A stretch of DNA of 26,360 nt from a virus (taxonomy: Duplodnaviria > Heunggongvirae > Uroviricota > Caudoviricetes). Location: IMG/VR virus record IMGVR_UViG_2534682078_000020; one strand, 5' to 3'. Below, in pieces: positions 3,203-3,454 of the stretch (position 1 is the first letter of the stretch; each line of letters begins with the position of its first letter). The notes beneath the pieces are model-generated. The model saw only the letters and a list, made by a program, of their open reading frames with translations. It did no database searches and was not told the DNA's origin. The position numbers and the translations under genes are program-made.

Positions 3203-3279
3203 TGGCGCGTTGTAGTGGAGTCTAACCACTGACCGATTGCTTAGAAGGCAATTGCTCTGTCCGACTGAGCTAACAACGC
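3203..3279 (-). tRNA. tRNA-Arg (anticodon UCU), prophage-borne
   Basis: Minus-strand cloverleaf GCGTTGT..ACAACGC acceptor stem, anticodon arm ATTGC-CTTCTAA-GCAAT (UCU), T arm AGTGG-TTAGACT-CCACT, encoded G-CCA tail. Confidence 0.85.
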
Positions 3280-3292
3280 ATGATGCTGATAA

Positions 3293-3369
3293 TGGACCGC
3301 CATCGGGGACTTGAACCCCGCGCAGCCAGCTTCGAAGGCTGGCGCTCTGTCCCGATGAGCTAATAGCGG
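3293..3369 (-). tRNA. tRNA-Arg (anticodon UCG by my fold), prophage-borne
   Basis: Minus-strand cloverleaf: D arm GCTC...GAGC, anticodon arm CCAGC-CTTCGAA-GCTGG (UCG), T arm CGGGG-TTCAAGT-CCCCG, encoded CCA; 5' nucleotide is C, which is atypical. Confidence 0.7.
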
Positions 3370-3378
3370 TATGTAATA

Positions 3379-3454
3379 TGGTGGCCCTTGCTGGATTTGA
3401 ACCAGCGACCTGGCGATTATGAGTCGCTCGCTCTCACCACTGAGCTAAAGGACC
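3379..3454 (-). tRNA. tRNA-Ile2 (anticodon CAU, lysidine type reading AUA), prophage-borne
   Basis: Minus-strand sequence GGTCCTTTAGCTCAGTGGTGAGAGCGAGCGACTCATAATCGCCAGGTCGCTGGTTCAAATCCAGCAAGGGCCACCA; near-identical in layout to E. coli ileX with anticodon loop CTCATAA. Confidence 0.85.

Follow-up and report, generated by a model that had tools for sequence, protein, structure and literature searches.

In the Shiga toxin (Stx) phage VT2-Sakai, the gene for the late antiterminator Q is followed by a set of tRNA genes, by stx2A and stx2B, and then by yjhS/nanS-p. Sets of tRNA genes are found at this position in related phages with other neighbors. The order in phiSTEC1575-Stx2k is antiterminator, winged helix-turn-helix (wHTH) gene, AraC gene, tRNAs and stx2k, and a locus in the O157:H7 strain NE 1092-2 runs from Q through AraC, the tRNAs, TerB, DUF3927 and an esterase gene to the holin gene. 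In phage JLK-2012, Q is followed by genes for tRNA-Asn, tRNA-Thr and tRNA-Gly, then by tciA (TerB), tciB (DUF3927), yjhS and the genes S, R and Rz. The names ileZ, argN and argO are used for the tRNA genes in the phage records AP012536 and AP012537. A full-text literature search on these names found no relevant paper among those covered, a search on ileX, Shiga and tRNA returned integration-site papers only, and one on tciA/tciB gave mostly papers on other subjects; the names rest on the annotation of the phage records. We have analyzed a 26,360-nucleotide stretch of viral DNA (IMG/VR record IMGVR_UViG_2534682078_000020), here called the window, which carries a tRNA triplet on its minus strand at positions 3203-3454. 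We are confident, though short of certain, that this triplet is the ileZ-argN-argO cassette of Escherichia lambdoid prophages, that it belongs to the late region of a defective Escherichia coli O111 prophage integrated at serU, and that it serves codon supplementation.

The window cassette closely resembles those of the Stx2 phages 933W, VT2-Sakai/Sp5 and Stx2 phage 86. The order Ile(CAU)-Arg(UCG)-Arg(UCU), the anticodons and the spacing of the genes are the same, at 93-95% sequence identity: the match to Stx2 phage 86 is 95.2% over the 252-bp triplet, and that to many Stx2a phages, VT2-Sakai among them, is ~93.4-93.8% over a 304-bp cassette. The -10 hexamer and terminator hairpin described below are also the same, as is the location with Q upstream and the lysis genes downstream. 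An earlier note on this DNA, made from the sequence alone, had equated the triplet with the ileZ-argN-argO genes of Stx phages, and this comparison bears the assignment out. The window differs from the Stx2 phages in its cargo, which is TerB and DUF3927 and not stx2AB, and in having U3 in ileZ, U5 in argN, and G50-C64 together with A56 in argO. A further difference, from VT2-Sakai though not from the Stx2k phage, is the AraC-type gene that lies after Q and before the tRNAs. The module of O157:H7 NE 1092-2, which lacks the insertion sequence (IS) present in the window, is 99.4% identical over a reconstructed 960-bp junction that begins at the end of AraC, spans the tRNAs and TerB and reaches the start of DUF3927, and has the same TerB and the same argN and argO alleles. 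The window departs from this module by an IS66-family insertion of 2.5 kb, flanked by a duplication of 8 bp at the TerB start codon, and by a private U3 in ileZ.

ARAGORN identifies three tandem tRNA genes with anticodons CAU, UCG and UCU, exactly where the earlier note had placed them and with the anticodons that it had given. The Rfam tRNA model (RF00005, gathering score 29) rejects none of them, including the middle gene (56.0 bits) about which doubt had been raised; the E-values of 2e-13 (CAU), 9e-10 (UCG) and 1e-12 (UCU) are far beyond chance. In RefSeq, E. coli O111:H- 11128 has these genes annotated as one tRNA-Ile and two tRNA-Arg genes. All three sequences parse into complete cloverleaves with encoded CCA ends and intact identity elements. 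Every one of the 21 stem pairs is formed in both argN and argO, and ileZ has an A27×C43 mismatch that is typical of its family and also present in VT2-Sakai. The three tRNA genes are thus real and constitute the well-known rare-codon cassette of lambdoid prophages of E. coli.

The codons read by the triplet are those in which the prophage is rich. We counted ATA, CGA, AGA and AGG per 1000 codons in the annotated coding sequences of the same genome. The value is 7.7 in a host core set (42 genes), 18.3 in the prophage structural genes (23 genes; odds ratio 2.4, p 2e-11) and 38.3 in the prophage early genes (22 genes; odds ratio 5.1, p 3e-32). It reaches 30.8 in the lysis genes, 46 in the AraC-type gene and 43 in nleC, and the stx2A gene of VT2-Sakai has 78. 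The codon CGG follows the same trend, at 3.3 per 1000 in the host versus 15-17 in the prophage structural and early sets. This enrichment fits classical codon supplementation. In such a scheme the cassette would supply tRNA-Ile2, reading AUA after lysidinylation by TilS, tRNA-Arg(UCG), reading CGA and probably CGG, and tRNA-Arg(UCU), reading AGA/AGG, and the added tRNAs would raise the decoding of codons that are rare in the host core and several-fold enriched in prophage genes.

The individual genes differ in how strongly they are conserved. Allele counts were made over 116 triplets, collected with a search pattern in which the anticodon loop was held fixed. The ileZ gene is nearly invariant, with 8 alleles and 99 of the 116 copies identical to VT2-Sakai. 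It is labeled tRNA-Ile in RefSeq and, by default, Met in ARAGORN. For E. coli TilS the major identity elements are the pairs 4:69 and 5:68, and the 3:70 pair, common to tRNA-Met, is unused by the enzyme (PMC11947777). Since the window gene combines its CAU anticodon with C4:G69, C5:G68 and A73, it is of the tRNA-Ile2 type and not an elongator tRNA-Met. It is identical to K-12 ileX at 67 of 76 positions, with the same anticodon loop, CUCAUAA, and its CAU anticodon is expected to be lysidine-modified by TilS so as to read AUA. The window copy is a singleton among the 116 triplets through a C3 to U change that gives U3·G70 and costs ~3 bits.

The argO gene shows intermediate diversity, with 25 alleles and the major allele in 57 of the 116 triplets. 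As in ileZ relative to ileX/ileY, the anticodon and anticodon loop of argO are those of its K-12 counterpart, argU. The two also share A20 and G73, although only 53 of 77 positions are identical. A20 and C35, together with U36 or G36, are the major identity elements for ArgRS; the discriminator is a minor element, and E. coli tRNA-Arg species carry A73 or G73. The D-loop of argO (AGUCGGACA) has the A following G18-G19, so that A20, C35 and a purine discriminator, G73, are all present. Two features set the window allele apart. It has G50-C64 in place of the C50-G64 of the major allele, which is a compensatory double change, and in its T-loop (TTAGACT) A56 replaces the near-universal C56, the partner of G19. 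The A56 is derived, since intermediates with G50-C64 and C56 exist. The A56 allele occurs in 3 of the 116 triplets and is common to O157 NE1092-2 and one IMG/VR contig; its score is 1.4-3.4 bits below those of canonical copies. The earlier note had overlooked this substitution, which is the more unusual change of the window copy. In six IMG/VR contigs (L040, L041, L052, L091, L097 and L106), ARAGORN calls ileZ and argN only, and a DUF3927-like open reading frame (ORF) lies almost directly after an argO-like remnant, which suggests that the third tRNA and the cargo junction have been rearranged.

The argN gene is the least conserved member of the cassette, with 40 alleles to the 8 of ileZ and 25 of argO, and twelve unpaired positions in its D-, variable and T-regions vary. 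The A of its D-loop (AUCGGGACA) follows G18-G19 and the anticodon is UCG, giving the A20, C35 and G36 expected of a tRNA-Arg. The earlier note had pointed out that this gene begins with C1 and has a G-U pair in the acceptor stem. Both features are present, as C1-G72 and U5·G68, and they are accompanied by a U73 discriminator; U5·G68 is the only G·U pair and there is no mismatch. Because C1-G72 and U73 are common to all 40 alleles, those of Stx2 phages included, they are uninformative about the window copy specifically. The lineage-specific feature is U5·G68, found in 3 of the 116 triplets, with U5 in one further allele. At 56.0 bits the window gene scores above its homologs in VT2-Sakai (54.8) and the Stx2k phage (45.5). 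The doubt about the middle tRNA is therefore reasonable for the argN family at large, but nothing singles out the window copy. In a frequent argN sublineage there is an A6×A67 acceptor mismatch and a T-stem mismatch, A58 is replaced by G, and the encoded CCA has been lost from part of the copies; these look like decaying copies.

To our knowledge, the UCG anticodon is not otherwise encoded in E. coli and argN has no host counterpart, as the host reads CGA through wobble by an ICG anticodon. The UCG anticodon of argN reads CGA, and probably CGG by wobble. The rapid change of argN relative to ileZ, together with a C1-G72/U73 end that is atypical for tRNA-Arg, could alternatively mean that it is not an ordinary arginine tRNA, being charged poorly or differently, or serving, in conflicts over tRNA-Arg, as a decoy or a substitute resistant to nucleases, and not simply decoding CGA. 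We give this idea little credence. A separate proposal would make the whole triplet a counter-defence that replaces host tRNAs, or acts as a decoy for them, when anticodon nucleases cut tRNA-Arg or tRNA-Ile. Colicin D cuts tRNA-Arg, and phage tRNAs can act as replacements or decoys against anticodon nucleases. The number of argN alleles and the unusual acceptor end are circumstantially in keeping with such a role. The anticodon loops are however canonical, and that of argO is the loop of host argU. The variation in argN consists of transitions to G·U and of mismatches scattered over stems and loops, as under relaxed constraint, and the fixed loop of the search pattern means that the allele counts exclude loop diversity. 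As the codon bias is already a sufficient explanation, a counter-defence role seems to us very remote.

The cassette appears to carry its own transcription signals. A candidate promoter, TTGATT-17-TATTAT, lies at 3493-3465, with its -35-like element overlapping the last codons of the AraC-type gene. All of the 120 loci compared have the TATTAT hexamer unchanged, at a distance of 9-10 nt from ileZ on its upstream side, and TTGnnn stands exactly 17 nt upstream of it in 117 of the 120, across at least four unrelated upstream contexts; in the upstream context of the window type the spacer has diverged. After argO there is a predicted intrinsic terminator (-14.6 kcal/mol, z -3.96) that is kept in Stx2a, Stx2k and TerB-type loci. 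A hairpin and T-run at <= -8 kcal/mol is present in 98 of 123 loci, with weaker homologous versions in most of the others. From this arrangement we infer that promoter, tRNAs and terminator together make up an autonomous unit within the Q-dependent late operon. The proposed sigma-70-type promoter ~10 nt upstream of ileZ and the terminator after argO would allow the tRNAs to be made in the lysogen, and expression of the downstream cargo would then need read-through of the terminator by Q-modified polymerase. A more speculative reading would have the cassette transcribed constitutively in lysogens, with the terminator as a Q-dependent gate for the cargo, whether stx or tciAB. A candidate tR' downstream of the Q-like gene (4599-4620, minus strand) folds no better than shuffled sequences (z +1.08), and we make no claim for a pR'/tR' pair.

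The triplet is widespread. Of 5426 complete E. coli genomes, 2578 carry it at a coverage of at least 80%, in up to 13 places per genome and at 7585 places altogether, and the IS-less tRNA-TerB-DUF3927 junction is found in 781 of the same 5426 genomes by the same measure. Among species-representative genomes the cassette was seen in E. albertii, an Escherichia sp. and two contigs from metagenome-assembled genomes (MAGs) only, so that it is essentially a feature of Escherichia prophages. A contig assigned to 'uncultured Collinsella sp.' (UQIB01000015.1) carries the Escherichia-type cassette with the same promoter sequence; Collinsella is an actinobacterium, and this MAG match is most likely a binning or contamination artefact. 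We also sampled 120 triplet-carrying IMG/VR contigs, non-dereplicated, among the matches listed. The first recognizable gene downstream is nanS-p in 46, TerB in 31, Stx2A in 14, a DUF3927-like ORF alone in 6 and another gene in 9, with too little sequence in the remaining 14. TerB is thus about twice as frequent as stx behind the triplet in this sample, and its presence there instead of Shiga toxin, which the earlier note had singled out, is a common and already annotated arrangement: the finding is correct but ordinary.

Several observations weigh against functional codon supplementation by the window copy. Each of its genes has a derived substitution (U3·G70 in ileZ, U5·G68 in argN and A56 in argO). 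The U73 of argN, found in all 40 sampled alleles including the Stx-phage copies, is not the purine discriminator of a tRNA-Arg. At least one stem mismatch occurs in 31 of 108 comparable argN copies (~29%), and no argN pair shows a two-sided compensatory change in these 108 copies, so the comparative data neither prove nor disprove the argN structure. A promoter scan of the single locus is not significant (score 9/12; 3 sites versus 3.3 expected), which leaves the support for the promoter comparative. TerB has only 7.0 rare codons per 1000, a single AGA in 143 codons, and the tRNAs are therefore not there to serve TerB. The prophage is defective, with a truncated int, an exo gene split by IS1203, a frameshifted ORF in the lysis region and an IS in the late operon. 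Finally, the near-identical O111 strain E2863 has 8 places that match the triplet, and the window copy may therefore be redundant or hypomorphic.

Taken to their limit, these observations would make the window genes decaying relics that are redundant with some seven other genomic copies and give no usable tRNA. Such a view draws on the three derived changes, above all the loss of C56, on the state of the prophage, on the matching places in E2863 and on the loose constraint on argN. It is difficult to reconcile with the condition of the genes themselves. The stems pair, the A27×C43 of ileZ being family-wide, and the identity elements, encoded CCA, promoter hexamers and terminator are intact. 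The scores of ileZ and argO drop by only a few bits, and that of argN is at or above those of Stx-phage copies. The compensatory G50-C64 change in argO is a mark of earlier selection on structure, and both O157:H7 and O111 have kept the same argN and argO alleles. We therefore consider it decidedly unlikely that the genes are relics, and retain codon supplementation as the explanation.

The cassette also forms one border of a site of cargo exchange. Homology between Stx-type and TerB-type phages in BLAST and alignments is restricted to the 304-bp block at window positions 3155-3458, which ends just past the argO hairpin, and resumes at the STnc100 small RNA (sRNA) and nanS-p. Given these breakpoints, the 1.37-kb stx2AB and the 0.73-kb TerB-DUF3927 segments occupy a single slot, of which STnc100 is the right border. 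The earlier note had described the triplet as lying in the stx position between Q and the lysis genes, and this phrase is accurate, as stx2AB (in VT2-Sakai) and TerB-DUF3927 (in the window) alternate between the same homology borders. STnc100 lies just beyond window position 1, after DUF3927 (positions 11721-11893 of the longer locus record L001). In VT2-Sakai it follows stx2B and is accompanied by the anti-sRNA AsxR (5162-5421 of record L002), and in O157 NE1092-2 it follows DUF3927 and is accompanied by AgvB (4568-4824 of record L004).

This geometry raises the question of whether the cassette is mainly architectural, a conserved non-coding anchor at which lambdoid phages exchange cargo (stx, terB/tciAB or none) by recombination, and in which tRNA function is secondary. 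The sharp breakpoints of the shared segments would follow naturally from such a role, as would the finding that the same AraC-and-tRNA left arm is joined to stx2k in one phage and to TerB in the window. In JLK-2012, moreover, TciA/TciB lie behind a different tRNA triplet, and the last of its tRNAs contains the start of the homology with the window. An anchor does not, though, explain the near-invariance of ileZ, the conserved anticodons, identity elements and promoter hexamers, or the match of the three anticodons to prophage-enriched codons. We regard a mainly architectural role as rather unlikely, and note that the anchor and tRNA roles are compatible with each other. Alongside codon supplementation, then, the cassette would border an exchangeable slot behind its terminator, with STnc100 and nanS-p at the far side, that holds stx2AB in Stx phages and TerB and DUF3927 in the window. 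The JLK-2012 triplet itself lies at 3292-3525 of its record (L005), where ARAGORN finds only the Asn and Gly genes of the three annotated. The homology with the window begins in the 3' part of the last of these tRNAs (query position 274), which suggests that tRNA genes have themselves been sites of recombination.

Over its first 9 kb, the window matches E. coli O111 strains at 99.9% identity. One of these is O111:H- 11128, in whose RefSeq annotation the lambdoid prophage is integrated beside tRNA-Ser (serU), mtfA and tRNA-Asn. Read in the phage sense, and with domains assigned by Pfam, PHROGs and NCBIfam, the prophage begins with the truncated int, the IS1203-split exonuclease, dicB/DicF, immunity and replication genes and hok/sok. 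These are followed by DUF968, RusA, the DUF1133 Q-like antiterminator, a 65-residue wHTH-like ORF, the AraC-type regulator and the three tRNAs. Beyond the tRNAs come the IS66-family element, TerB, DUF3927, STnc100 and a SASA/nanS-p esterase, and then holin, lysozyme, terminase, head and tail genes and nleC. The features around the cassette are collected in Table 1. Elsewhere in the window there are a hok/sok locus (7598-7922; sok 113.5 bits), the DicF sRNA (15249-15300; 75 bits) and an ALIL IS3-family frameshift pseudoknot (25674-25790; 121.5 bits).

Table 1. Features at and around the tRNA cassette, in window coordinates
Feature	Position	Strand	Basis and remarks
DUF3927/TciB-like small membrane protein gene, 5' part (55 aa)	1..65	-	remainder past window edge; L001 11898-12065
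TerB-family protein, TciA-like, 143 aa, ORF intact	62..493	-	Pfam PF05099, PHROG 632
Target-site duplication, left copy AAACATCG	488..495	.	holds TerB start codon (491-493, minus strand)
IS66-family element, ISEc47-like, tnpA tnpB tnpC	496..3027	+	24-nt imperfect inverted repeats 496-519 and 3004-3027
Target-site duplication, right copy AAACATCG, 8 bp	3028..3035	.	holds orphaned copy of TerB ATG
Orphaned TerB leader	3036..3164	-	long hairpin with strong folding; original Shine-Dalgarno is AGGA at 3042-3045
Intrinsic terminator (predicted) after argO	3165..3190	-	8-bp GC-rich stem and UUCG loop 3171-3190; U6 run 3165-3170
argO-type tRNA-Arg, anticodon UCU, reads AGA/AGG	3203..3279	-	ARAGORN; Rfam 66.7 bits
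argN-type tRNA-Arg, anticodon UCG	3293..3369	-	ARAGORN; Rfam 56.0 bits
ileZ-type tRNA-Ile2, anticodon CAU	3379..3454	-	ARAGORN; Rfam 69.4 bits; RefSeq tRNA-Ile
-10-like hexamer TATTAT	3465..3470	-	consensus scan; 10 nt upstream of mature ileZ 5' end
-35-like hexamer TTGATT, candidate cassette promoter	3488..3493	-	consensus scan; overlaps last codons of AraC-type gene
AraC-type helix-turn-helix regulator, 237 aa, YdeO/GadX-like	3483..4196	-	Pfam, NCBIfam; immediately upstream of tRNA cassette
Q-like late antiterminator, DUF1133 / Phage_antitermQ	4754..5320	-	Pfam, PHROGs

The AraC-type gene matches the NCBIfam models YdeO (5.7e-31) and GadX (1e-24), in both cases under the equivalog cut-off, and the same gene also precedes the triplet in phiSTEC1575-Stx2k and O157 NE1092-2. 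Prophage regulators of the Psr/PatE type, which act on acid resistance and type III secretion, have been reviewed (PMC10877973), and the AraC-type protein of the window is probably one of these.

TerB scores 60.2 bits to Pfam PF05099 against a cut-off of 24.4 (2.9e-16) and has a match at 1.7e-69 to PHROG 632, 'tellurite resistance', in the moron category. The protein is WP_000466957.1, identical to the TerB of the IS-less O157 locus. DUF3927 scores 60.4 bits in Pfam against a cut-off of 25 (1.7e-16) and belongs to PHROG 1470, 'TciB-like inhibition of cell division or resistance to colicin', also in the moron category. Its GTG start overlaps the TerB stop. A TerB domain followed by an overlapping small DUF3927/TciB membrane protein is the arrangement of TciA/TciB in JLK-2012 and in phage P1, the P1 connection being one that we presume from annotation names and general knowledge. 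In JLK-2012 the pair likewise stands between a tRNA triplet and yjhS/nanS-p, unlike the window in that the tRNAs are Asn, Thr and Gly. Unlike in the ter (tellurite resistance) operon, no other ter genes lie beside the window TerB. PADLOC defence models gave only sub-threshold matches, at the E 0.003 level, to TerB, DUF3927 and the AraC-type protein. With low confidence, we suggest that TerB and DUF3927 form a membrane-associated moron, of a stress or exclusion type, expressed with the late operon. A tblastn search with Stx2A and Stx2B found no match in the 3.2 kb that the window has on the downstream side of the triplet, and stx is annotated nowhere in the prophage, which therefore does not have the stxA/stxB behind the cassette that mark a Stx-converting phage.

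The earlier note had set the IS aside in naming TerB as the gene after the triplet. The identity of TerB and the absence of stx hold, but the IS is not ignorable, as it severs TerB from its ribosome-binding site. The element is 2532 bp long and oriented opposite to the phage late operon. Because the target-site duplication includes the TerB start codon, 2 nt separate the IS from the ATG that follows it. The Shine-Dalgarno that TerB originally had (AAAGGAACGTCACG-ATG) is now 2.5 kb away, beside the orphaned ATG, and the TerB ATG is preceded by the IS end (…TTTACGCTTACCG-ATG), where there is no obvious Shine-Dalgarno. Since the insertion would separate TerB from both its Shine-Dalgarno and upstream transcription in the O111 lineage, TerB expression is probably low; TerB and the translationally overlapping DUF3927 are probably poorly expressed or silent in the lineage that carries the IS. 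The IS-containing arrangement is common to 45 complete genomes. In IS-less loci such as O157 NE1092-2 the leader adjoins TerB directly. In the window, the 135 nt at 3036-3170 (minus strand) fold into a long hairpin of -55.3 kcal/mol (z -2.77), a stability equaled by 1 of 200 shuffles. A search of the leader against Rfam gave no match even at E<=1, and terminator-like fragments only.

Annotations of the cassette and its TerB/TciA neighbor already exist for hundreds of E. coli genomes and phages in public records, and the additions of the present analysis are modest: the exact borders of the slot, comparative support for the promoter and terminator, the lineage substitutions (notably A56) and the IS that uncouples TerB from its ribosome-binding site. 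The cassette marks an exchangeable slot in which the Shiga toxin genes reside in related phages. The details of this slot may help studies of how stx cassettes move between prophages, and of how prophage tRNAs support the expression of AT-rich, horizontally acquired genes.

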